In this document: piece by piece, positions 27,115 to 58,842 of the stretch
Numbering within the stretch: the stretch's first letter is position 1
How the letters are laid out: the number at the start of each line of letters is the position of its first letter
Virus record (IMG/VR): IMGVR_UViG_3300043568_002650
Span: 64,512 to 128,511 of that record
Length of the DNA stretch: 64,000 bases
DNA from: a virus
Taxonomy: Duplodnaviria > Heunggongvirae > Uroviricota > Caudoviricetes
Strand: one strand, 5' to 3'
Translations under genes and position numbers: made by a program
The notes under the pieces: generated by a model
The model's input: the letters and a program-made list of their open reading frames with translations, nothing else
Databases searched by the model: none
What the model was told of the DNA's origin: nothing

Positions 27115-27621
27115 CTAATCTATTATACTCTTTTTTTCTGGAAAGTTTATTGCAACTTGATATAATTCTCTAAGATACATCCAAGATTTACCAAGTTTAT
27201 TCTCTCCGATCCAATCATCATCAACCAGCATTGCTCCCCAATATAGGTTAGAACCACGAGATCCTCTAGCCGTCACATCTTCAACGATTATAGCATTACC
27301 CGTTTCTAAAAGAGAATCTATTAATTCTGGATGATGCTTGATTTTCAGGAGTAGACAAAGTGTCATATTTCCATAGTCATCATCAGACATTGGCTGAATT
27401 ACCATTTTCTCCCTATGTTTCTTAGCCATCATTTTAGCAGCAATCGGAGATTTCTGTTCTCGTATTAATTCACAAATCTCTTCATCTTTAAATCTCAGTG
27501 CCTGGAATAGAGCTTCAGTAGTTCTCCAAGTTTTGCCATCGTATTCCACAGGATATGGAGCCATATTTCCAAGCCAGCCATGCTGAAGTTTAACTTTAGT
27601 GAATGATATAATATTTTCCAT
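27115..27621 (-). CDS. NADAR (YbiA-like) domain protein
   Basis: GWLGNMAPYPVEYDGKTWRTTEALFQALRF matches the YbiA/NADAR core (FSNF...DGKTWPTSEHYFQAQKF). Confidence 0.8.
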   Translation of the reverse strand: MENIISFTKVKLQHGWLGNMAPYPVEYDGKTWRTTEALFQALRFKDEEICELIREQKSPIAAKMMAKKHREKMVIQPMSDDDYGNMTLCLLLKIKHHPELIDSLLETGNAIIVEDVTARGSRGSNLYWGAMLVDDDWIGENKLGKSWMYLRELYQVAINFPEKKSIID

Positions 27622-32482: not shown

Positions 32483-32550
32483 ATTAATGCTTCTTAACCC
32501 GAAAAAGAGCTTGCGGTTAGCAAGCTCTCGGTCGGTATATGAGTGACTGA

Positions 32551-34416
32551 TTACTCAGTCGGAGGAGTTACCTTTGCTGTAACATCAGTGATTACTTGTT
32601 TCTTTTCCTGGATCTGCTTTAACATTTCCATTCCAAGTAATCCATTGATTGCACCATTTCCATCATTACCTGAGATCAAGATCTCTGGGATAATTTTGAT
32701 TCCGTTAGTACCAATCATTTCAGTAACTTTTAATTTGCCAAAGTTATCTGCTCCCATTGCTTTAACCTGTTTCTCATAAGCTTCAGCAGTTGATTTACCG
32801 ATTGCTGCAATTTTACTTGCTTCAGCATCACCAGTAAGTTTAATTTGAGCCGCATCTGCTTCAGCCATCATCTTCTTAGCTTTGGCTTGAGCGCCAGCTT
32901 TTAATTCTAGTGCTTTTGCTTCACCTTCAGATCTCTTAACAGATGCTTCAGCTTCACGTTGTGAGATCTCTACTGATTGTTGAGCAGCAACCATTTTCCC
33001 TTGCATATCAGCTAGGGCTTTTGCAGATTCTAATGTCTTACGTTGATCTTGTGCCTTACGCTGAGTTTCGAAAGTTACCTCCTCTTCTTGAGCAATCTTA
33101 CGATCAGTAAGAGTTTTCATTAGGGATTCAGGTGGAGTAATATCACCAATTAAGGTATCTACTGCATGTACATTGTACTCGTCTAATACTCTACTGATAG
33201 ACTCTTTAGCTGCATTTTGTCGAGCTTGACGAGTAGTTAAGAATGCAATAACATCTGAGTCTTGAGCAGAGTTTCTAAAGTAGTTACCGATAGTTGGCTC
33301 TAATACTTGAGATACTAAGTTCTGCATTGATCCGAATCGTGCAATTACCTTTGGTGCTTCTGTTGCTGGGATATGTATGATTTGAGATACATCTAAGTTG
33401 AATGGGAAACCGTCTTTAGAACGTACTGTGATTGTACTTAATCCCTTGTCTAATTGATGAGACTCGTTTCGTGCATTCGCCCAGTTAAGTACTAGATTAG
33501 TTGTAGGTACAACTTCAATCTTATGAGTATATGGATTGATTGCATATTTTCCAGGATCAAGTGGAGTAATACATACACCCTTTTCACCTTTCTTCACGAT
33601 ATTACCGTGCTTAAAGGTTTCGCCAGTAGTGTCTACTCCTTCATCTCCAACATAAGAGATTACAACACCTACATGTCCAATAGGAATTTGAGTCATTGCG
33701 ACCTTTTCAACTTGTACTGCCCATGGGTTAAGAGAGTAATTACCCGCTTGAACTACTTGAGTCTGTAGACCACGTTGACCGTTATTTAATAAGAATGAAT
33801 CGAAATCTTGGAAGTTATTATGACCTTCGATTACTTTTCCAGCAATTGCACTCTGATCTAGTGGAACACCATCTAGTGCAGTCATTACCCCGACTTGACC
33901 ATCTTCAATATATGTAATATCAGTCATTGCTAAATCAAATAGGAATGGATTGATACGATATACACCATTATTTAAGTAACCAACTTGCTTACCTCGTTGA
34001 CCGCCATTTGTTAAGAATGCATGGGTGTCTTGGTAATTATCACACTCTACGTGTCGAGCTAGGATAGCACCGGTTGGTAGTTGTGCACCGTCTTTAGCAG
34101 ATAAGAGTCCAATCTTTCCTTGTGGAATAATCGTTAATGGTGACTGCTCAATTGAGAATTGCCATACCCAATAGAACCAATAGAGTCCAGGAGCTAAGGT
34201 GTCTGCTTGAAATCCAGGTTCACCATTAAGTGCAATAATCTTACCGTCAGGTAAGGATCTATTTGCTCCAAATAGAACGAATTTCTTAGTAACTAATCCA
34301 ATCTTGTCCTCTGGAATAATCACCATACCGAAAAATACTCTTAGTGTAAACTTGTAAAACACTAAAGCGATAAGTGGAATCGCCATCCATGCATAATTTA
34401 AAACTGTTTCTAACAT
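32551..34416 (-). CDS. flotillin / SPFH-family membrane protein (YqiK-like)
   Basis: N-terminal TM helices. Repeated GQRG.Q..V...G.Y..NP SPFH-type segments. C-terminal flotillin-like Ala/Glu/Lys coiled coil (EAEASVKRSEGEAKALELKAGAQAKAKKMMAEADAAQIKL) and a ...NGIKIIPE tail. Confidence 0.7.
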   Translation of the reverse strand: MLETVLNYAWMAIPLIALVFYKFTLRVFFGMVIIPEDKIGLVTKKFVLFGANRSLPDGKIIALNGEPGFQADTLAPGLYWFYWVWQFSIEQSPLTIIPQGKIGLLSAKDGAQLPTGAILARHVECDNYQDTHAFLTNGGQRGKQVGYLNNGVYRINPFLFDLAMTDITYIEDGQVGVMTALDGVPLDQSAIAGKVIEGHNNFQDFDSFLLNNGQRGLQTQVVQAGNYSLNPWAVQVEKVAMTQIPIGHVGVVISYVGDEGVDTTGETFKHGNIVKKGEKGVCITPLDPGKYAINPYTHKIEVVPTTNLVLNWANARNESHQLDKGLSTITVRSKDGFPFNLDVSQIIHIPATEAPKVIARFGSMQNLVSQVLEPTIGNYFRNSAQDSDVIAFLTTRQARQNAAKESISRVLDEYNVHAVDTLIGDITPPESLMKTLTDRKIAQEEEVTFETQRKAQDQRKTLESAKALADMQGKMVAAQQSVEISQREAEASVKRSEGEAKALELKAGAQAKAKKMMAEADAAQIKLTGDAEASKIAAIGKSTAEAYEKQVKAMGADNFGKLKVTEMIGTNGIKIIPEILISGNDGNGAINGLLGMEMLKQIQEKKQVITDVTAKVTPPTE

Positions 34417-34475
34417 TTGTTTAATTTAATTGATTTATATTATTATACTACTATTTGTCTAATGATAAAACTTTA

Positions 34476-35960
34476 TTATCCAATAAGTTTATCGATGTTA
34501 GACCGAACTTCGGTAAGAGTAGTCTCATTCAAGAATTTACCATCTTCATAGATAGTTTGCAAGATTCCAGTCTCTTCCTCTTCCCAAGAACATTGAGTGT
34601 GTACTTCATGATCTTCATCTACCATGATTAGACCCTTTAGGGATTTCTTAGTTCCATCATCAGTGATTGGATCTTTAAAAATATCATAAGCTTTACCATC
34701 AGCTTCGAACCATGCACCCTTAGCTGCAAATCCAAAAGTATCTCGAGTATTCATTTGATATGTGTATGAACCAACACCTAACACGATATTAGTTGAAGCA
34801 AATCCTTTAGCGGCTAATCGCTCATAGATTTGAATTTGGCGATCCAGTGTAATTGAGTCTCCATAGATTGCACCAATATGAGGATCTAGAACTTTGAATC
34901 CTTGTTCGTTGATTGTACCACCGAAGATATCCCATAGTAATTCGATAACGCCTTTATTTTGAGGTTCGTTTCTAGCCTCTTCACTTTCTCCATCAGGATC
35001 AAAACCGCCCCATCCACAAAGAATATCTACTGGATCTCCAGAGTCAGGGCGAATAACTAATTTACCTTCGCGAGACATAATTTGCTCCTTGTTTTCAGGC
35101 AAGTATTGAGTAATCAACGTCCATAAGTCAAAGGTATCGGATACAACTGAAAGAATTCCAGTAGGAAATTGATCCATAAAGTATTTCAACATTTGTGATT
35201 CACCCATTGTAAAGATACAAGTAGTTGATACTGAGTGTTCGGATGCATTTACAGAATTGATACTGACTTCGTTTTCTGGTTCTCCATAGAAGTATCGAGC
35301 TCCTGGAATCACAATAATTGAATCTGAGCCTCTGAAAGAGGTAGCGTGACCAAGTCCACTAGATAACATATCCCATGGGCTTAATCCTCTAGCACTAAAG
35401 TCATGAGCTAAGAAAGGAATCAACCATGCATTTGCTGGATCAGTCGTCATTACCCATTCAACAAGATTTCTTTTGTATTGAAGAGCAATAGTTGCGGATG
35501 TTGCAGGTTTCCATGCAAGAGAGGAGACAATTGTTTCTAGATAAAGAGTTAGCCAAGCAAATCCTGCAACAGTATTAACGAAAGTCATGTGAGGAACATT
35601 TGGACTTGTCTCAATTCCTTCAGGTAGAGCTTTAAAACGAATAGGCAAGTAACCTAGGTCATGTAGTTCACCAAAATGAGTAGAGTCAAACTCCATTCCT
35701 AGATACATTGACATGTCCTGACCAAACTTTAAAGCTTCGTCTTTAGGGAGACTGAAAAAATTCTCTTGATATTCGTCATGTAACCAACGAACTACTAGTT
35801 GCTGACCAAATGAAACAATTTTAGTAACACCTTTAGGCGCGTGTTTTGTGCTGCGAGGAATCCAGGTTCCATATAGGAAGTCTGTTCCTGGTGCTAGCAT
35901 TTTGCGATGGCCTATCTTGTATCCATCAGAATAAAAAAGCGTGATTGGTTTAAATGACAT
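34476..35960 (-). CDS. nadV: nicotinamide phosphoribosyltransferase family protein (NadV/NAMPT-like, or Namat-like)
   Basis: DGYKIGH (DSYKVTH), KALPEG, AHDFSARG, SVVSDTFD, VIRPDSGDPVD, AIYGDSI and FKDPITDDGTKKSLKGL all align with NAMPT hallmarks. Confidence 0.85.
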   Translation of the reverse strand: MSFKPITLFYSDGYKIGHRKMLAPGTDFLYGTWIPRSTKHAPKGVTKIVSFGQQLVVRWLHDEYQENFFSLPKDEALKFGQDMSMYLGMEFDSTHFGELHDLGYLPIRFKALPEGIETSPNVPHMTFVNTVAGFAWLTLYLETIVSSLAWKPATSATIALQYKRNLVEWVMTTDPANAWLIPFLAHDFSARGLSPWDMLSSGLGHATSFRGSDSIIVIPGARYFYGEPENEVSINSVNASEHSVSTTCIFTMGESQMLKYFMDQFPTGILSVVSDTFDLWTLITQYLPENKEQIMSREGKLVIRPDSGDPVDILCGWGGFDPDGESEEARNEPQNKGVIELLWDIFGGTINEQGFKVLDPHIGAIYGDSITLDRQIQIYERLAAKGFASTNIVLGVGSYTYQMNTRDTFGFAAKGAWFEADGKAYDIFKDPITDDGTKKSLKGLIMVDEDHEVHTQCSWEEEETGILQTIYEDGKFLNETTLTEVRSNIDKLIG

Positions 35961-35975
35961 ATTATAAATTTTTGA

Positions 35976-36470
35976 TTAGTTACTTGTGTTAATTAAATCG
36001 TCACGTAATTGAGTAAGTACTTCACCTAACCAGTTAGTACCTTTCCAATTCTTTGGATCGTGAATTTTCGGATCATCTTCAGATAAGCCGATTCCCCATA
36101 CAGTATCGTATGCTGCAGCCTCGACTAGAAGTGTTCCTTCTGTTTCTAATAAAAAAGCTAAGAGCTTAGGGTTCTGTGTAAATTTTAAGTAGCATCCATC
36201 ATAAACTATTTGCTTAGCGAATTCGTTCCAGATAGAAGAATCAAAATTCTTGACCTTTCGACCTAGTGCTTTTTGTTTACCTGGATCTTTTTCAAAAAGA
36301 ATATCTTCGAGAGTCTCATCATCACTGAATAGTCTAGCTTTTCCAGCCATCATCCATTGCTCAGAGCAATTGTATTCATTTCCTTCTTCATCTTCAAAAG
36401 TGCAAGGATGCCAATTTGAGAATGGGTTACGCGTCTTATAAAAGAACGTGTATTTTGTGTACTGTTTCAT
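35976..36470 (-). CDS. NADAR (YbiA-like) domain protein
   Basis: TFFYKTRNPFSNW, SEQWMMAGKARLF, LLVEAAAYDTVWGIG and GTNWLGEVLTQLR match the YbiA/NADAR family. Confidence 0.8.
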   Translation of the reverse strand: MKQYTKYTFFYKTRNPFSNWHPCTFEDEEGNEYNCSEQWMMAGKARLFSDDETLEDILFEKDPGKQKALGRKVKNFDSSIWNEFAKQIVYDGCYLKFTQNPKLLAFLLETEGTLLVEAAAYDTVWGIGLSEDDPKIHDPKNWKGTNWLGEVLTQLRDDLINTSN

Positions 36471-36664
36471 ACTGTTTCGTTTTTGTTTGATGATAATGTC
36501 AAGCAGACTTTACTGCCAGCAAATCTGTTCCACTTTTTTGTTTGTATTTGGACAACGTCCGAAATTGCTGATTGTAATTTAATTGTAAATTCTTTAAGGT
36601 GTACACAATCATATATACCCATACTTTCAACTTCAATCTCAATAGTTATTTTTCGTTTTGACAT
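36467..36664 (-). CDS. hypothetical small protein
   Basis: 65-aa ORF within the operon. Confidence 0.3.
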   Translation of the reverse strand: MSKRKITIEIEVESMGIYDCVHLKEFTIKLQSAISDVVQIQTKKWNRFAGSKVCLTLSSNKNETV

Positions 36665-36667
36665 TAT

Positions 36668-37006
36668 TTAGTTATTAAAGTTCTTATAAAAATCTTTTCC
36701 CGAGCCAGTAACATATTGAACTGATAGTCCAGTCGGGGTATGTAGTTCAACAAACATTGGGTTTCCAGAATAGGTACATACTTGCGTAACATACTCTAGG
36801 TTTTTTATCTCAGTTAGAAAATTTCTATTTTCTCCTAAGATCTTTAGCGAAGCATCAGTGAGATCTAATTCGTTTGATATTGTGATCTCTATGCAGTATT
36901 CGCCAGTAGCGATTGCTCGAAAGTCGCTTAATGCAGGTTTGTCATGTTTATCCACTCCAGTGTAGGTAATATTGATTGATATCTGCTTGTGCAAGAACGT
37001 GTTCAC
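36668..37006 (-). CDS. hypothetical protein
   Basis: 112-aa ORF. It overlaps the upstream gene's 3' end by 59 nt. Confidence 0.35.
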   Translation of the reverse strand: MNTFLHKQISINITYTGVDKHDKPALSDFRAIATGEYCIEITISNELDLTDASLKILGENRNFLTEIKNLEYVTQVCTYSGNPMFVELHTPTGLSVQYVTGSGKDFYKNFNN

Positions 37007-37727
37007 AAGTCGCTTTCACAATTTCAAGAGCTTGGATATACCATGAGTTGTCGCTTTCAGTCACGACATACATGCAATCACGTTCTCTAAGGAGTGTAGA
37101 CTTTCCAGGTATAATCGCTAAGACTTTAAGTGGTTCAGCCATATAGAACTCACCAGTCTTATTAGAGTAGTTTGAGTTAAGTCTATTTTCTCGACTAGTC
37201 TCATCGATAAAAGCACTAAGTGCAGCAAACTCAGATTTTATGTCAGGTTCACTAAAAATATTTGTCGAGACTGTGTTTACTCGATATGCACCTTTCTCTT
37301 TAAATAGAGCGATTATTTTAGTTACTCTAGTTAAAGCATCTTGCCAGTTAGGTTGAAACGTATACTCTTCATCCTCTTTTTGAAAGATATCATGTATTGT
37401 AGGTAGTCCTAAATTGCGTAGTATTCTCTCAAGTCCACCAGAATTATATGAGCTTCTGAAGTAGCCTATTTTGAAATAGTGATCAGGATAATCTGGATGA
37501 GGTAACTCTATACACTCCTTACCTGCCTTATCGTCTCCCCACTGGTCAAGTCCTAGACTCTCAGCAAATTCTTTCTCCTTTGTACGAAGTTCATCTTTTA
37601 CCTCTTGTGCCATTGAATCGTATTCGTGACCTTTCCATAGTTTTTCTGAAAATTCTTCGTATTCTTTCTCAAGTCTTTGAGTCTTTTCAAAATCCTGATA
37701 CTTATAAAGATAAATGTCTAATCCCAT
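36948..37727 (-). CDS. hypothetical 259-aa protein within the NAD/ADP-ribose operon
   Basis: Long ORF with no motif recognised. Confidence 0.45.
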   Translation of the reverse strand: MGLDIYLYKYQDFEKTQRLEKEYEEFSEKLWKGHEYDSMAQEVKDELRTKEKEFAESLGLDQWGDDKAGKECIELPHPDYPDHYFKIGYFRSSYNSGGLERILRNLGLPTIHDIFQKEDEEYTFQPNWQDALTRVTKIIALFKEKGAYRVNTVSTNIFSEPDIKSEFAALSAFIDETSRENRLNSNYSNKTGEFYMAEPLKVLAIIPGKSTLLRERDCMYVVTESDNSWYIQALEIVKATCEHVLAQADINQYYLHWSG

Positions 37728-37775
37728 TATAGTGTTATTTATAGATACTATACTAAATTATAGAGAAATTAAAAA

Positions 37776-38309
37776 CTATTGTACATAATTGACTATTGTC
37801 ACTTCACAAAACCAGAGTTCAGTCTCAATAATCTTTTCAATCCTTTCCCAGTCTCCTCCAGCAAGACCTGCACCAATCTTTGGTAGCCCAATATGTTTGC
37901 CTCCAAATAGGTTATTGATTTTTCGCATACACAAGGTAAATGCTTCATAATCGAATGGAGCAGTTGCACCATCTTTATGATTACGACCGTACTTATATTG
38001 AGTATATGCATTTACTACAATTAGCTCAGGTTCATTACGATTATTTTTTGCATCTTCGAGTGACCAAATAGCCTTTTCGCCAAGTACAACTGTTTTATAG
38101 TCGATATTACCTAACTTGTTGATATCTCGACCTAAGAGTTCCATCTCAAATCGATCGCAGCCAAAAGCTTTTGCCATTTGTGGAGCAATACCAGCTCCCA
38201 TAGTACTCATGCAATTACAGCCATGTGCAATCACATCAAACTTGCCCTCTTTAGCAAGCTGGATCAAGTCTCCATCTATCCTATTCATCTGCATCCTCGA
38301 TTGAAGCAA
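37776..38309 (-). CDS. macro domain (ADP-ribose binding/processing) protein
   Basis: GDLIQLAKEGKFDVIAHGCNCMSTMGAGIAPQMAKAF resembles GDIT-LAVDAIVNAAN..LGGGGVDGAIHRAAG. Later IGAGLAGGDW resembles the second macro phosphate-binding loop. Confidence 0.6.
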   Translation of the reverse strand: MLQSRMQMNRIDGDLIQLAKEGKFDVIAHGCNCMSTMGAGIAPQMAKAFGCDRFEMELLGRDINKLGNIDYKTVVLGEKAIWSLEDAKNNRNEPELIVVNAYTQYKYGRNHKDGATAPFDYEAFTLCMRKINNLFGGKHIGLPKIGAGLAGGDWERIEKIIETELWFCEVTIVNYVQ

Positions 38310-38475
38310 TTATTGTTCTCTCAATTGGATAACAGCAAACAAGTTTACTATCCGCATAGAATGCATAGTAACCACTAGAAGTGCCACTATTTGTGGTAGT
38401 ACTAAAGTTTTCTGCAAACGCGGTGTATCGACATTCACGATCGCCAATCATTACAATTAACTGATACTTATTCAT
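38281..38475 (-). CDS. hypothetical small protein (start moved to the internal Met MNKYQ)
   Basis: This ATG overlaps the stop of the upstream gene (GATGAATAA). The longer 38535 start would overlap by 68 nt. Confidence 0.3.
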   Translation of the reverse strand: MNKYQLIVMIGDRECRYTAFAENFSTTTNSGTSSGYYAFYADSKLVCCYPIERTIIASIEDADE

Positions 38476-38668
38476 CTTCGTCTTTCTTTTTTGGAAAATC
38501 TCCATCTGCATCGCAGTGAGCTGGAGGATATCCATGTGTACTAATGTTGAGGTGTCTCCAGAAACGGTTCCATACTCTAAATAAAAAGTTTAGGGGTACT
38601 GAAATTAGGATGAGTACTCCAATAAATGTCCAGAATGATCTGAACGTAAATTCTAAAAAATCCATCAT
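38468..38668 (-). CDS. small membrane protein
   Basis: 66 aa with a TM helix FWTFIGVLILISVPLNFLF. Confidence 0.35.
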   Translation of the reverse strand: MMDFLEFTFRSFWTFIGVLILISVPLNFLFRVWNRFWRHLNISTHGYPPAHCDADGDFPKKKDEDE

Positions 38669-39138
38669 ATTAATTCTTTGTTTTTAATGTCTTCTAATAA
38701 TTCGTCTAACTTTTCATAGTTAGGTATTCCATATCGTTCACATACGATATCAACGTTGCCTTTTCTCCAAAAGCCAGTCGGGCAGCATACTAGCATCCTC
38801 CCAGAATCTGCAAACTTACCGAATTCAAGTAGAGAGATCGGTGATTTTGTGTCTGGAGAAAAATACATGATTATCAAGTCAGCTTTCTCTAACGCAGTTA
38901 ATTCCCAGTTTACTTGCTGATAAAATTGAGGATTTGTTATACTCTGTGGCCAGCTTGAATCCCATTCATCTCGTCGAGGATTAAGAATAGCAATATCTTT
39001 GGGATACTTTTTAAAGTAGTTCTCGACTAGGGTTTGCCAGTCTTCTGCAATTCCCATTTCAATACTGCCAGCTAGGAAGATAGTCCGGATATTTGCGCCA
39101 GCTTTACTTATTGGATACGGCGGTTTGATTACTTTCAT
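38665..39138 (-). CDS. nucleoside 2-deoxyribosyltransferase-like (DNPH1/Rcl-type) protein
   Basis: 157 aa. IFLAGSIEMG...ILNPRRDEW...ADLIIMYF pattern resembles the N-deoxyribosyltransferase fold. Motif-level call only. Confidence 0.4.
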   Translation of the reverse strand: MKVIKPPYPISKAGANIRTIFLAGSIEMGIAEDWQTLVENYFKKYPKDIAILNPRRDEWDSSWPQSITNPQFYQQVNWELTALEKADLIIMYFSPDTKSPISLLEFGKFADSGRMLVCCPTGFWRKGNVDIVCERYGIPNYEKLDELLEDIKNKELI

Positions 39139-39139
39139 A

Positions 39140-40033
39140 TTAAAATATATTAAATTGGGTTAAGAAGCTATTATCGACTGTGTAATCTGAATATTCGTCG
39201 ACTTTAATATCCTTGACACTATTTGTACAGTAAACACCAGTAAAATAGTTGGAAAGTTCAAGTAGACCAGCTGAAAATATTCCATGAGTGACAATCAAGT
39301 AGATTTTATCACCAAATAAGTCTCGCGGTCTCTGTTCGCGAATAGCTTTTGCAACTTCAATAAATGTTCGACCTCCGTCACAAATATCGTCGATGATTAC
39401 AAAGTTTTTTCCACGAGAACCATCGATGTGTGGAAGTTCAGTGTGTAGGATCTTGCCTGTGGTCAAGTCTCTGACTTTAGATGCAGTCGCAACTTCTCTG
39501 ATATCAAAATGCTTAGCTACTCCATATATCTTTTTAAGTGCACCGGCGTCTGGCGAAATAATACATATCTTTTCTCGAGCAGCATTCGTATTATCAATTG
39601 AGGTAAGAGCAGCTTTGATTAGACTATAGTTGTCTATCTTATCTAGCCGATCAATACATGCTTCGATTACGTCAGAGTGAGGATCTAGGACTAGGACTCC
39701 TTTATAGTGCTGCGCATTAATAATTGGAGCAACAACATCCTTGATATAATTGATTGAGCCCTCTTCGAACTTACGATCACTACGACCGCCTAAGAAGTAT
39801 GGAATATAGAGAAAAATATCAGTCATTCCCATATTCTTTAGAGCGGCAGTTGCACAAAGAATAAGTTCAAGATCCTGAAAGCTAGTAAATCTTGAATAGA
39901 TCTTAATTGCAATTTCAGATGCTACACCTGAAGTTATCTTAATAGACTGCTGACCATCAGGAAATTTTGTTTTCTCGAACTTAATATCTGATTTCTCAGG
40001 ATATGCGAGATTAAGTGTGCTAATTTTTGACAT
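39140..40033 (-). CDS. prs: ribose-phosphate pyrophosphokinase family protein (Prs-like; could be ADPR-PP synthetase)
   Basis: IPYFLGGRSDRK (IPYFGYARQDRR), LVLDPHSDVIEACID (DLHAEQIQGFFD), ISPDAGALKK, NFVIIDDICDGGRT (VLVDDMIDTGGT) and THGIFS (THPIFS). Confidence 0.85.
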   Translation of the reverse strand: MSKISTLNLAYPEKSDIKFEKTKFPDGQQSIKITSGVASEIAIKIYSRFTSFQDLELILCATAALKNMGMTDIFLYIPYFLGGRSDRKFEEGSINYIKDVVAPIINAQHYKGVLVLDPHSDVIEACIDRLDKIDNYSLIKAALTSIDNTNAAREKICIISPDAGALKKIYGVAKHFDIREVATASKVRDLTTGKILHTELPHIDGSRGKNFVIIDDICDGGRTFIEVAKAIREQRPRDLFGDKIYLIVTHGIFSAGLLELSNYFTGVYCTNSVKDIKVDEYSDYTVDNSFLTQFNIF

Positions 40034-40047
40034 CTTAGTTACGGGTT

Positions 40048-40458
40048 TTAATTAATTTTTTCTATTTTAACTACTGAACCTTGGCCGTGCATTACTTGGA
40101 TCACATAGGAGCCAATCGTATACATTGATCCGGTAAAAGTGTTTGCATATTGAGGATCTTCACAAGGCTTGCAATATTCTTCTGCATAATTAAATGCGAC
40201 CCAAAGAAGAGTTTCTCTAGGCTCATATCCTAATCTATATTCTCGACGAACGTATTCGTCTGAATCGTACTTGTCAATTATCTTTTCAAGCACTTCATCA
40301 AGTCGACCTTCGGTGTATTGCTTAAATCGCTCTACTTGACGATCGCGGTAGTCTTCCTCTTGTTCAAGTTTTTTACCAAACTCTTCAAGATATCGCTGAC
40401 CCTCTTCAGTTTCTAATAAAGCTGTTAACTTATCTAGTAGACTTATTTTTTCGCTCAT
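40048..40458 (-). CDS. hypothetical protein
   Basis: 136-aa ORF. Confidence 0.4.
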   Translation of the reverse strand: MSEKISLLDKLTALLETEEGQRYLEEFGKKLEQEEDYRDRQVERFKQYTEGRLDEVLEKIIDKYDSDEYVRREYRLGYEPRETLLWVAFNYAEEYCKPCEDPQYANTFTGSMYTIGSYVIQVMHGQGSVVKIEKIN

Positions 40459-40847
40459 AATTCTAGGTGTTTTTTAGCGTTATCTAAATAACCCTGTATG
40501 TTTTTCTTTCCTACTGGATTTGCAGAGTGTACATGGTATTCTGGTAGTTTAAATCCATTATCTAAACAGTATTCAACTAGCCATTTTGCACAGTCTAATC
40601 CAGTTTCCTCTACTCCAAGCTGATCTGCGGTCATGTCATTCCAGTCATTAAAGTCAACTTCATAGTGAACATCCGCAAGATCATGATCAAATGATACTAT
40701 TTCTGGGAGACCATTTCTCTTGATCCATGCACAAAATTCAGGATAGTTCTTTACTATTGCCCAATCGTCTTCCCAATAGAGAGCTGGATTTAGGACAAGA
40801 TAGCAAGCATCTTTGGGTTGTCTAATATCGTCTAGGAATAGTTTCAT
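40455..40847 (-). CDS. hypothetical protein
   Basis: 130-aa ORF. Confidence 0.4.
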   Translation of the reverse strand: MKLFLDDIRQPKDACYLVLNPALYWEDDWAIVKNYPEFCAWIKRNGLPEIVSFDHDLADVHYEVDFNDWNDMTADQLGVEETGLDCAKWLVEYCLDNGFKLPEYHVHSANPVGKKNIQGYLDNAKKHLEL

Positions 40848-41496: not shown

Positions 41497-42019
41497 TTAG
41501 GTATGCAAATAGTGGAGTAAGCGCATGATTACCAGAACCAGCCCATCCTAATTTTTCCATAAAGTTTTCATTTTCTCTCTTGTACATTTCAAACATTCTA
41601 GAACCACTTATTTTTGAATACTGAACATTTGCAATACGGTCACATAGTTTTACAAAGACTGCCCCTGGCTGATTACGAATTCCTTCATAATACTTATCAT
41701 TTGCTCTTTCTGCACGATTCTTCCCTTTCTCATTACTAACAGCATAGATAATATCTGCTGCACATTCACCAAGCTCTTCAACAACATCATTATATGAAAC
41801 TCGAGTGTCCTCAATAAGATCATGTCCCCAACAAGCTAAGTAGACATTTACCTGGCTGTCAATTGTTCCATGATGATTTGAAAGTATGTACTTAAATCTA
41901 TTATATGCCTCAACTACCATTCTTAAATGAAACTCGTATGGCAAATATTTATCGTACATGTGATTAGTCGAACGATGTTGTTCTAATACCCAATCGGATT
42001 TTGATTTTAATCTTTCCAT
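41474..42019 (-). CDS. HD-domain phosphohydrolase, Mesh1/SpoT-hydrolase-like (small alarmone hydrolase candidate)
   Basis: EFHL ... LACWGHDLIEDTRVSYNDVVEELG closely resembles the RelA/SpoT/Mesh1 hydrolase HDxxEDT...EEFG signature. TATAAT sits 6 nt before the ATG. Confidence 0.55.
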   Translation of the reverse strand: MERLKSKSDWVLEQHRSTNHMYDKYLPYEFHLRMVVEAYNRFKYILSNHHGTIDSQVNVYLACWGHDLIEDTRVSYNDVVEELGECAADIIYAVSNEKGKNRAERANDKYYEGIRNQPGAVFVKLCDRIANVQYSKISGSRMFEMYKRENENFMEKLGWAGSGNHALTPLFAYLIELFESK

Positions 42020-56279: not shown

Positions 56280-57413
56280 TTACACATATAGTAAATCTAG
56301 TGGAGATTCGGAAAAGTATTGTAGAACAAACTCATTAAACTGATCAAAAGTAAGAGACTTATCGTGTTTTAACATAAACGAATATAGATCATTCACATCT
56401 TTAATTAGTCGAACACTTCTATAATCTTCACTATATTTTTTTCGAAGATCTGCCATTACTTTATTCCATAGGAATACTTGATAACCTTTTTTGATTAGTT
56501 CAATAGATTGAGTCTTACCAGCAAGGTCACTATCGAATAGGATTAGGGTGTTTGATTTACTTAATAGGTTCTCCAATAGAAGTTTACTCTTAGAGATACC
56601 AGTAGTGGCGATTGAGTTATTCAGGAACATTGCATCAATTTGACCCTCAGTTACTAGGATAGGCTTTGTAAAATCAACATTCAATACATTAAAGTAATTA
56701 TTAATTGAATCAATATCAGATATTATATCGTCTTCTACGTTTCGGACAAGACCATTCTTTTTTAATTCAGAATAGTTTTTAATTAGGTATTTTGGCCCAG
56801 TGATATCTTCACCGATTCGACGTATTGCAAAACCAAGTATCTTACCAGTTCGATAATCTATATTAAAAAGATATACTTTATCCTCTCTTGAATCAAAATA
56901 ACTACACCTTTGAAATGCAGGGAGAGTATCAAGTGCGCGATTTTTTATGAATAGTCCAAGTTCAGTATCTGGATCAATCTCACTACATGGAGTTAATGAA
57001 AATCGGTGAGCTACTTCTTCTATTTTTAAGAGGTGATCACTTGCGTTCTTATTAATTAAGAGCTCGATTAATGAGCCTCTCTTCTTTTTAGAAGTTTGAG
57101 GAACCCACTCTTCTTTTGCATTAACCTCAGGTATTCCTAGTGAATATTTAAGTGCAAATTTAGAGATAAACTTAGGAATATCAGATTTTACACCACATCC
57201 ATCATTATAGCATTTGTAGAATCCGCGATCAGGATATATGTTTCCTCTCTTTTTTCTAGAGTCTGATTTGGAATCTCCGCAATATGGGCAGGCGAAATTA
57301 ATCTTATCACCAGATTCATATACTTCCTGTTTAAATCGATCATCTGGAAATCTCTTCTTTAGGACATCCTTTATGAAAGCGTGTATATTGTATCCAGTTA
57401 ACAAATTAATCAT
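56280..57413 (-). CDS. g61: DNA primase (T4 gp61-like; zinc ribbon + TOPRIM)
   Basis: ACPYCGDSKSDSRKKRGNIYP...YKCYNDGCG matches gp61 CPVCGDSKTDQNKARGWYY...CYNC. LVTEGQIDAMF is the TOPRIM acidic motif. Confidence 0.8.
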   Translation of the reverse strand: MINLLTGYNIHAFIKDVLKKRFPDDRFKQEVYESGDKINFACPYCGDSKSDSRKKRGNIYPDRGFYKCYNDGCGVKSDIPKFISKFALKYSLGIPEVNAKEEWVPQTSKKKRGSLIELLINKNASDHLLKIEEVAHRFSLTPCSEIDPDTELGLFIKNRALDTLPAFQRCSYFDSREDKVYLFNIDYRTGKILGFAIRRIGEDITGPKYLIKNYSELKKNGLVRNVEDDIISDIDSINNYFNVLNVDFTKPILVTEGQIDAMFLNNSIATTGISKSKLLLENLLSKSNTLILFDSDLAGKTQSIELIKKGYQVFLWNKVMADLRKKYSEDYRSVRLIKDVNDLYSFMLKHDKSLTFDQFNEFVLQYFSESPLDLLYV

Positions 57414-58842
57414 TTTCTTCTTCCTCTAATACGGGAACAAGATTAGATTTTTCCTTCTTCTTGATCATCCTTTTTAAATACTTATCGAGTTCTGGCTTAG
57501 GAACAATTGTGGTATTTAGACCATATCGAGTAATAACTCCCAAATATTCTTGGAAGTCTTCTTCTGGAATATCGGCATCTGCATTTCCTATGACTTTCCA
57601 GAATTTTTCTGGGACTTCAACATATTCTAGTGTCTCCTGATCAACTATGTATAACGGAAATATCTCAGCATCAGTAAGTACCTTCTTGCTTTTTACTGTT
57701 ACTAACTCTACTGTTCTCTTTAAGTTTGAATCAAGAGAACTGATCTTCATTGCAGTCAATAATCGATTAATAGGTTCAATAATTAGTGAAAAGAATTGAG
57801 AGTCAATATCCATAAGTAGAGCGATCTCATCAGGATAGGTTCCAGGAGAGTATGCAAATACATCATGACCTCCTTCATTAGATGCAGGATTACAGTAATA
57901 AAATTTTATTTTATCACCTTCTCTAATCTTTGGATATTTTTCAACTAGTCCAGTAGTAATTAAAGTATGATTATAAATTGCAGCTGCTCTAGGAAAGATT
58001 GATATTCCTTTTCTGAGTTCAAGTTTAGCTTCACTAGCAACATACTTATTATAGACTCTAATTCTAAAGTTAAAGGCTAGATCATCTGGATGAAGACTAA
58101 GTGCTTCATTCTTTAGATCTAACAGTCGAGGAATAATATCTTTTTCTAAGTCAAGTCTTTTACCGCGATCCATAACAAAGGAGGTAAGCTCAGTAAGTTT
58201 ATTTCGAGCCCAGATAGGGTATGAACCCTTAACTGGTTCTAGACCTTTTATTATTAAGTATCTCTTATCTTGTGGTTCTAGCTCATAATTTGGGTTTGGC
58301 TCATATGCTACTCTAATAGCATAGTTTTTCTTTTTTAGCCAAATACCAGTCTCAGAAAGATTTTCAAGTTTAAACTTAAGTCGGTTCTTAGTATTAAAAA
58401 CTCTTCCATATTTCTCAAAGCACATATCAAAATAACTAGATAGACGATATCGATCAATACTAATACAGATATTTAAAGCTTCGTCTTTTGAAAAATCAGC
58501 GCCAATTATTGAATCAAGGGCAGAGTCAAACTGTACATAAATTGAGTCAGTATCAGTATAGATTGCAGCTTCTGCTTCAATCTTATTAATAGTGTATTGA
58601 TCAATTCCAAGCAATTTGTGTAGCTCAGTATCAAGATGCCACTTTTCTAAAAAATAATGGTTTACTGCTTTAATCGAAAACTTGATTAGATCTTGTCCTT
58701 GTAGAGTGATGGACTGTGCAATATCTGGGTTGTAAAAATAGAACCACTTATTTCCAAATGCACCATAAATTGAGTTAATTAGGATCTTTATCGCATTCTG
58801 CTTCAGATCAAGTTTTTTGATATTTTTTGCTTTATCTTCCAT
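57406..58842 (-). CDS. g43: family-B DNA polymerase, C-terminal fragment only (gp43-like; motifs B and C and thumb)
   Basis: KILINSIYGAFGN (motif B, KxxxNSxYG) at residues 19-31. ITLQGQ. IYTDTDSIYV (motif C). The ORF starts 18 aa before motif B, and upstream is an intergenic region followed by a + strand gene. Confidence 0.85.
   Translation of the reverse strand: MEDKAKNIKKLDLKQNAIKILINSIYGAFGNKWFYFYNPDIAQSITLQGQDLIKFSIKAVNHYFLEKWHLDTELHKLLGIDQYTINKIEAEAAIYTDTDSIYVQFDSALDSIIGADFSKDEALNICISIDRYRLSSYFDMCFEKYGRVFNTKNRLKFKLENLSETGIWLKKKNYAIRVAYEPNPNYELEPQDKRYLIIKGLEPVKGSYPIWARNKLTELTSFVMDRGKRLDLEKDIIPRLLDLKNEALSLHPDDLAFNFRIRVYNKYVASEAKLELRKGISIFPRAAAIYNHTLITTGLVEKYPKIREGDKIKFYYCNPASNEGGHDVFAYSPGTYPDEIALLMDIDSQFFSLIIEPINRLLTAMKISSLDSNLKRTVELVTVKSKKVLTDAEIFPLYIVDQETLEYVEVPEKFWKVIGNADADIPEEDFQEYLGVITRYGLNTTIVPKPELDKYLKRMIKKKEKSNLVPVLEEEEND

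Follow-up and report, generated by a model that had tools for sequence, protein, structure and literature searches.

The window, a stretch of 64,000 nucleotides (nt) from the Caudoviricetes virus record IMGVR_UViG_3300043568_002650 of IMG/VR (positions 64,512 to 128,511 of that record), encodes on its minus strand an SPFH/flotillin-like protein, whose gene is the last of a co-directional NAD+/ADP-ribose gene cluster. The open reading frame (ORF) occupies exactly the positions 32551..34416 given in an earlier note made by a model from the DNA letters; it lies on the minus strand, runs uninterrupted for 621 codons, giving a protein of 621 amino acids, and ends in a TAA stop codon at 32551-32553. 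Many metagenome contigs carry this protein or a near-identical one beside the same neighbors, six of them the identical protein. More than 8000 database clusters match it, the best 120 of these being 82–100% identical and about 620 residues long. The gene is real and functional.

The protein belongs to the SPFH superfamily and is of the flotillin/YqiK type, an assignment that is sound by hidden Markov model (HMM) match, fold, and C-terminal region. Pfam Band_7/SPFH (PF01145) matches residues 243–453 with an E value of 1.9e-26 (93.6 bits, where the cut-off is 23.6), and the SPFH α/β fold is present. The HMM search proposed in the earlier note, which had left room for a generic coiled coil without an SPFH fold, thus came down on the side of SPFH. 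Of the PHROG families, PHROG_200 alone matches (E 1.5e-20); the "lipoprotein" label of that family is ruled out for this protein, which has no cysteine within its first 35 residues. No NCBIfam model matches the protein, and a phmmer search against PDB sequences gave no match. A family profile of 112 relatives searched against PDB sequences has as its best match residues 205–401 of flotillin-2, the C-terminal helical region of that protein (E 7.5e-7), followed by QmcA, HflC, flotillin-1, and prohibitin. The automatic JGI name for the cluster is YqiK, and the resemblance to YqiK/FloT recognized in the earlier note is well supported.

A structural model was obtained with AlphaFold2 (AF2) from an alignment of 112 relatives (41–91% identity), with a mean predicted local distance difference test score (pLDDT) of 76. 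It supersedes a single-sequence model, which was unusable at a pLDDT of 38. At the N-terminus, Kyte–Doolittle windows exceed 1.5 only within residues 1–35, the model places helices at 2–19 and 21–28, and the hydrophobic anchor is conserved across the family alignment. Of the several transmembrane helices previously proposed, one is therefore retained (residues ~3–30). The positive residues that follow the helix (K22, R26, and K44-K45) suggest, by the positive-inside rule, that the bulk of the protein is cytoplasmic, as is accepted for YqiK. The flotillin-type Ala/Glu/Lys helical tail of the earlier description is borne out by composition (24% Ala, 13% Lys, and 10% Glu across residues 456–560), by the long model helices 430–495 and 502–554, and by the flotillin-2 profile match. 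Beyond these helices, model confidence falls to a pLDDT of ~40–60, while the family alignment retains an invariant P577 and near-invariant K574, G583, L593, and L594.

Between the anchor and the SPFH core lie four β-modules, termed U0 to U3 (Table 1). Profile–profile comparison of sub-alignments with hhalign relates U1 to U2 with a probability of 99.7% (E 4.6e-26), U0 to U1 and U2 with probabilities of 94.7% and 95.3% (E 6e-8 and 2e-8), and U3 to U1 and U2 with probabilities of 91–94% (E 9e-7 and 2e-7). None of the four modules resembles the α/β core (residues 309–428) in these comparisons. Since U3 opens the Band_7 match, and the modules are homologous to one another and unlike the core, the profiles identify the repeats as tandem duplicates of the β-subdomain with which the SPFH domain opens. 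The duplicated SPFH-like segments of the earlier note are accordingly present as four homologous β-modules, although they are copies of the opening subdomain and not of whole SPFH domains.

The repeat is most regular in a relative of 1802 residues, P0121, in which 13 tandem units precede the SPFH domain, the first 12 of them spaced exactly 73 residues apart. A unit HMM derived from the P0121 repeat scores strongly on the window protein at residues 100–170 and 172–244, and weakly at 63–97 and 275–306. Among 150 family representatives, the number of clear 73-residue units per protein ranges from 0 to 13, two being commonest. No Pfam model covers the repeat unit in the window protein or its long relatives; CshA_repeat and ATP-synt_ab_Xtn were considered as names for the repeat and set aside, as they appear only as sub-threshold cumulative Pfam matches on the long relatives. 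Three of these long proteins (P0121, P0124, and P0148; 970–1800 residues, up to 13 units) have an additional segment N-terminal to the anchor and, at the C-terminus, a further domain of the von Willebrand factor A type (PF00092, E 1e-7 in P0121).

Searches of the PDB with Foldseek, using the full model, highlight major vault protein (MVP) chains as the closest structures (E 4.5e-13 to 1e-10, over 650–815 columns), ahead of prohibitin, erlin, flotillin, stomatin, and HflK/C. PDB entries 9mxj and 9mxv are among the matches. A further match, 3gf5_A, has no SPFH part, and hence would have to stem from the modeled β-modules. The predicted structure comprises tandem β-repeats with the MVP repeat fold, followed by an SPFH shoulder and a cap helix. 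At the level of sequence, the tests for MVP are negative. Neither Pfam Vault nor MVP_shoulder matches the window protein or its long relatives, while true MVPs carry PF01505, PF17794-6, and PF11978. A search of PDB sequences with the family profile returns no MVP chain at E <= 1. Alignment by hhalign of the family with rat MVP and with a profile of 96 tetrapod MVPs gives probabilities below 1% for both repeats and core, and a borderline 51% for residues 531–574 against the end of the MVP cap (779–828). The rat MVP query matches the rat MVP chain 4hl8_A end to end (861/861 residues, 1909.5 bits). Assignment of the protein as an MVP is therefore rejected. As the likeness in predicted structure lacks sequence support, the protein is described here as vault-like in architecture, and not as MVP.

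MVP is soluble and anchorless and forms 39-mer half shells joined at their N-termini, whereas the phage protein and its family have a conserved hydrophobic anchor at the N-terminus. The two share the same order of parts, in which tandem small β-domains lead into an SPFH-type "shoulder" and then a long helix. They differ in that the phage protein has a transmembrane anchor and 3+1 modules where MVP has nine, and its C-terminal helical region is closest in sequence to flotillin-2. Prokaryotic relatives of MVP have been described as few, and include Asgard MVP homologs with five repeats (PMC12962969); repeat number varies among the prokaryotic relatives of the present family in a comparable manner.

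Among the other SPFH proteins, the closest counterparts are the YqiK/FloT (YuaG) flotillins. HflK/C, QmcA, prohibitin, erlin, and stomatin form cages without tandem β-repeats, and their sequence similarity to the family is marginal (E 7e-4 to 0.04). HflK/C is periplasm-facing and holds FtsH, and the partner of QmcA is an NfeD protein. The YqiK/FloT flotillins (COG2268, the "SPFH2" group of Hinderhofer et al. 2009, PMC2636767) have, like the phage protein, a single N-terminal anchor followed by positive residues, a Band_7 domain, and a long Ala/Glu/Lys-rich helical region with flotillin-type C-terminal similarity. Unlike them, the phage protein has two to three extra β-modules between anchor and SPFH domain, and its gene has none beside it of the NfeD-type partners (YqiJ/YuaF) whose operon is typical of the group (PMC2636767).

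SPFH proteins are already known in viruses, and their supposed rarity in phages was overstated. Band 7 ORFs were listed in 2006 in the T4-like phages 44RR (ORF098c), Aeh1 (ORF064c), and RB43 (ORF139c) (PMC1524935), PHROG_200 collects such proteins, and annotated examples also come from Vibrio, Rhizobium, and Streptomyces phages and from giant viruses. All of these are, like the protein studied here, SPFH-fold membrane proteins. A viral structure library searched with the model yields 26 matches at E <= 1e-3 from phages and giant viruses, the named ones being nearly all annotated as SPFH, Band 7, prohibitin, or HflK-type proteins. Most annotated viral SPFH proteins are single-domain and 170–430 residues long, in contrast to the ~620 residues and repeats of the present family, which is moreover associated with large phages that have T4-type portals and shares 61–65% identity with Bacteroidota chromosomal genes. 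The Vibrio phage homologs are ~22% identical over 57–77% of the query. The best viral structural match, and the only one of comparable length, is an 802-residue "prohibitin domain-containing protein" of Harvfovirus sp. (BFVD A0A3G5A4K1; 749 columns, E 1.9e-13), pointing to a giant-virus SPFH protein that is likewise long and possibly vault-like.

The family also has cellular members. In a scan of prokaryotes with one genome per species, 598 of 600 stretches among the matches listed encode a relative. The best 80 of the matches listed are 61–65% identical over the full length and come nearly all from Bacteroidota (Flavobacterium, Chitinophagaceae, Spirosoma, Ferruginibacter, Fluviicola, and similar taxa), including type strains, isolates, and complete chromosomes. 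The Niveibacterium and Mucilaginibacter copies are single genes amid ordinary cellular chromosomal genes. Homologs of 63–64% identity also occur on a 198-kb contig (L136) in a metagenome-assembled genome (MAG) named "Methylophilus rhizosphaerae" and on a 201-kb contig (L166) in a "Vulcanococcus limneticus" MAG, neither of them Bacteroidota; instead of cellular genes, these may represent large-phage contigs binned in error.

On the viral side, a scan of IMG/VR finds 99 loci of the family on contigs of up to 508 kb, with full-length conservation down to 48% identity. A Megablast search of a phage collection with the 12 kb around the SPFH gene gave no match. In a neighbor-joining tree, 56 viral sequences, including that of the window, form an all-viral clade whose sister group comprises Bacteroidota sequences and 14 other viral ones. 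In comparisons with viral relatives whose synonymous differences are close to saturation, the ratio of nonsynonymous to synonymous substitution rates (dN/dS) is 0.017–0.09, indicating strong purifying selection. The simplest reading of these sequence relationships would be that the gene was captured once, long ago, from a Bacteroidota-like host and has since been retained by vertical descent.

Because the gene lies on the minus strand, it is the last of the co-directional NAD+/ADP-ribose cluster. The earlier note, which placed it at the head of a NAD operon and immediately upstream of it, had misread the strand; the gene is the 3' tail of the cluster. The NAMPT-family gene lies directly upstream of it on the coding strand; the rest of the cluster spans 35976..40033 (-), with unassigned ORFs interspersed, and its order is kept on metagenome contigs. 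Upstream of the SPFH start codon, positions 34417-34430 (-) read 'aattaaattaaacaa', composed of A and T only and without a Shine–Dalgarno-like purine run. A consensus scan found no terminator between the NAMPT-family and SPFH genes and one weak sigma-70-like match (9 of 12). As no hairpin separates the two genes, read-through from upstream is plausible, and the SPFH gene is probably transcribed as the final gene of a unit with NAD+-rebuilding and ADP-ribose-removing enzymes. The hairpin that follows the gene folds as RNA at -25 kcal/mol, compared with -10.1 ± 2.3 for shuffled sequences (z -6.6; 0/200 shuffles as stable). The consensus promoter/terminator scan did not list this hairpin, and its promoter-like sites were fewer than in shuffles. 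Coordinates of the gene, its protein regions, and the cluster are given in Table 1.

Table 1. The SPFH/flotillin-like gene of the window, regions of its protein, flanking elements, and the co-directional gene cluster
Feature	Coordinates	Strand	Basis or remarks
SPFH/flotillin-like gene, complete	32551..34416	-	ORF listing; Band_7 E 1.9e-26; identical protein on 6 contigs; dN/dS 0.017-0.09
N-terminal membrane anchor, residues ~3-30	34327..34410	-	one hydrophobic helix, then K22, R26
β-module U0, residues 36-97	34126..34311	-	divergent copy; low-confidence loop 52-68; AF2 strands
β-module U1, residues 98-170	33907..34125	-	full 73-residue unit; unit HMM E 1.3e-25; pLDDT ~83-91
β-module U2, residues 171-244	33685..33906	-	full 73-residue unit; unit HMM E 4.9e-24; pLDDT ~87-94
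β-module U3, residues 245-308	33493..33684	-	N-terminal β-part of Band_7 match (match starts at residue 243)
SPFH α/β core, residues 309-428	33133..33492	-	
Long Ala/Lys/Glu-rich helical region, residues 430-554	32755..33129	-	composition, AF2, flotillin-2 profile match; flotillin-type wall or cap helix
C-terminal region, residues 555-621	32554..32754	-	conserved 'KI.P..' segment, Gly-rich stretch, terminal helix; low-confidence model
Terminator-like hairpin	32502..32529	-	10-bp stem, 5-nt loop, U-run; begins 22 nt past SPFH stop codon
AT-rich spacer, 59 nt, NAMPT-family stop to SPFH start	34417..34475	-	no hairpin and no Shine–Dalgarno-like motif (sequence read)
NAMPT-family gene	34476..35960	-	PF04095 E 9.5e-33; phrog_448 E 1.4e-157; directly upstream of SPFH gene on coding strand
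NADAR gene	35976-36470	-	Pfam/PHROG
ORF of 259 residues without assigned family	36948-37727	-	between macro-like and NADAR genes
Macro-like gene	37776-38309	-	Pfam/PHROG
Nucleoside-2-deoxyribosyltransferase-like gene	38665-39138	-	Pfam/PHROG; after PRPS-like gene
PRPS-like gene	39140-40033	-	Pfam/PHROG; first of cluster along minus strand

Several further genes were noted in the surroundings of the cluster. A second NADAR-domain gene (168 residues, 27115-27621, minus strand) lies ~5 kb past it, with PF08719 seen on the matching metagenome contig. Just upstream of the cluster and on the same strand, 40455-40847 (-) encodes a 130-residue protein with a cREC_REC domain (PF20274; matching contig), and a DUF6717 protein, also seen on the matching contig, lies farther upstream, among neighbors that reach to position 42019 of the window.

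Other genes of the window specify a T4-type portal and a UvsW-like helicase, and one ORF gives a partial match to family-B DNA polymerase. In the phage collection, the nearest relatives of the portal belong to uncultured phages of 462–735 kb (30–38% identity), followed by Lak phages (32%). Together with SPFH-bearing viral contigs of up to 508 kb, these relatives assign the window to a phage of that portal group that is large or huge. The missing Shine–Dalgarno motif at the SPFH start is usual for Bacteroidota; with the best cellular matches to the SPFH protein nearly all in that phylum, it fits a putative Bacteroidota-type host. The polymerase signal, in the region 56280-58842 (-), covers only profile positions 146–238, within a 478-residue ORF (57406-58842), and the adjoining 377-residue ORF has no Pfam match; the polymerase could be split, intron-bearing, or very divergent. 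ARAGORN reports, inside the 478-residue ORF, an 89-nt "tRNA-Pyl" with the amber suppressor-type anticodon CTA (58208-58296, plus strand). It is probably a false call, not confirmed by Rfam, which finds no tRNA or other RNA family anywhere in the window.

The preferred reading, to which we assign a probability of roughly 0.6, is that the protein is a host-derived scaffold of the flotillin/YqiK type, probably forming a membrane dome, by which the phage reorganizes or protects the host inner membrane during infection. To our knowledge, the SPFH proteins solved as complexes (HflK/C, QmcA, flotillin-1/2, prohibitin, erlin, and stomatin) all form closed multimeric domes standing on the membrane. By analogy, many copies of the phage protein would most likely assemble on the host inner membrane, at its cytoplasmic face, into a ring or dome with the transmembrane helices at the rim and the long helices closing the roof. 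The extra β-modules may stack like vault-wall repeats and raise the wall, so that a patch of membrane and a small cytoplasmic chamber would be enclosed. The phage lineage would have taken the gene from Bacteroidota-like bacteria and kept it under strong selection. By corralling membrane proteins or lipids, the scaffold would most probably serve to reorganize or protect the host inner membrane while a long infection lasts. With less confidence, such partitioning or stabilizing of the host membrane might stand in the service of counter-defense or of general membrane upkeep.

Several points weigh against this reading. Cage formation is argued by analogy, and the membrane orientation derives from the positive-inside rule alone. 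The neighbor-joining tree carries no support values. No NfeD family is found among the neighbors in the window, on related contigs, or around the Niveibacterium or Mucilaginibacter copies, and the PADLOC models of defense and anti-defense return no family at E <= 0.01. The late-promoter motif search is uninformative on the timing of expression: neither the T4-type motif TATAAATA (four matches against nine expected) nor the variant seen upstream of the SPFH gene (nine against 10.6) is enriched in the window. About half of the clade, and every more distant viral homolog, lacks linkage to NAD genes; with so patchy a linkage, a dedicated NAD-related role is not required.

That linkage is nevertheless the basis of the first alternative, in which the protein is a dedicated counter-defense part of the NAD+/ADP-ribose module and its cage cooperates with the neighboring enzymes. 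The cage might bind NAD+, ADP-ribose, or ADP through its SPFH domain, as human MVP does, house the NAD-rebuilding enzymes or tether them to the membrane, or trap membrane-bound immune effectors activated by NAD-derived signals. In 22/47 loci of the window's viral clade, the gene next upstream in the same orientation is of the NAMPT family, compared with 0/15 viral loci outside it; a deoxyribosyltransferase-like gene lies directly downstream in 16/53 clade loci, compared with 0/19 viral loci outside; and at least one NAD-cluster gene occurs within ~5–6 kb in 24/36 clade loci, compared with 0/12 viral loci outside. In many relatives (L066, L018, L047, L049, L026, L030, and others), the SPFH gene sits between the NAMPT and deoxyribosyltransferase-like genes with gaps of ~12–150 nt, even where NAMPT identity is down to 51–75%, and the association survives local rearrangements (L038 and L051). 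The window itself has the deoxyribosyltransferase-like gene upstream instead, beside the PRPS-like gene. The PRPS-like and NAMPT-family genes form, by annotation only, the pair of the phage NAD+ reconstitution pathway NARP1. Furthermore, NAD+, ADP-ribose, and ADP are ligands of the human MVP SPFH domain, where they sit between monomers (PMC12280208), a striking parallel, though for the phage protein it may serve as a lead and no more.

Against this alternative, the linkage is confined to one clade, and within it direct NAMPT adjacency is absent in 25 of the 47 loci. A homolog of 64% identity in the 642-kb phage LR756502 stands among CoaE, DUF6915, and peptidase genes, with no NAD linkage, and none of the cellular homologs inspected is near NAD genes. 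By hhalign, neither the MVP shoulder nor its ligand pocket shows sequence similarity to the family, and the PADLOC search was, as stated, negative. Conserved gene order among related phages is also expected from common descent alone. The linkage is thus real but lineage-specific; it is consistent with the inheritance of an island and is no proof of functional coupling. The position beside NAD genes, flagged as notable in the earlier note, is co-directional and recurrent in the clade, yet belongs to one lineage and has the SPFH gene downstream of the enzymes. A dedicated NAD-related role is judged unlikely.

Less probable still is that the protein controls the phage's own membrane events, for instance by setting lysis timing through restraint of holin-type proteins or stabilization of the membrane up to the end of assembly, or that it keeps the DNA of superinfecting phages from entering. 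The membrane location and scaffold fold would suit such roles, the gene is kept by many large phages, and the literature found links bacterial SPFH proteins to membrane-stress responses and protease control. However, no lysis genes were identified beside the SPFH gene. The four small ORFs that lie 3' of it, before the strand switches, have no informative family in Pfam or PHROG, a gene with an SLT domain on a related contig is ~8 kb away and not adjacent, and nothing in the data is specific to exclusion. Finally, a recently captured host flotillin carried as a passenger with no phage-specific role, as the 61–65% identity to host-type proteins and the variable neighborhood might suggest, is already disfavored and very improbable, given the low dN/dS across viral copies with saturated synonymous sites, the full-length conservation across the 99 viral loci, and a monophyletic viral clade that implies long vertical retention.

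Beyond the preferred reading of a host-derived membrane scaffold, it is tempting to speculate that the family builds membrane-anchored "half-vaults," that vault walls arose from flotillin-like cages, and that there may be a tie to NAD+ handling; this is a doubtful proposition at present, though a far-reaching one. If the repeats are truly related to those of MVP, the family would show how the vault wall evolved from flotillin-like membrane cages. Bacteria and large phages would then build tall closed chambers on the inner membrane, their height set by the 0 to 13 clear units, and in the window's phage clade the chamber may couple to NAD+/ADP-ribose handling, echoing NAD+ binding by the SPFH domain of MVP.

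No description of the repeat-extended, membrane-anchored, vault-like architecture was found in Pfam or the literature searched, nor was one found in that literature of such a protein as a conserved gene of a large-phage clade. Literature searches on SPFH with huge phages and on vault with YqiK found nothing, and those on flotillin with jumbo phage revealed, judging by title and abstract, no phage flotillin. How the vault, with its SPFH "shoulder," originated is still open; solved SPFH cages exist for flotillin, HflK/C, prohibitin, erlin, and stomatin. With an anchor, a variable stack of β-repeats that profile comparison shows to be copies of the SPFH opening subdomain, and a predicted MVP-like shape, the present family offers a testable intermediate between flotillin cages and vaults, and it is found in hundreds of Bacteroidota genomes and on about a hundred large-phage contigs. 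Read plainly, as a host-derived flotillin without a settled benefit, the protein is of moderate interest only. As a strongly conserved, host-derived membrane scaffold that in one clade lies within a likely counter-defense NAD+ cluster, it is a candidate for a new means by which phages may manage the host membrane or host immunity.

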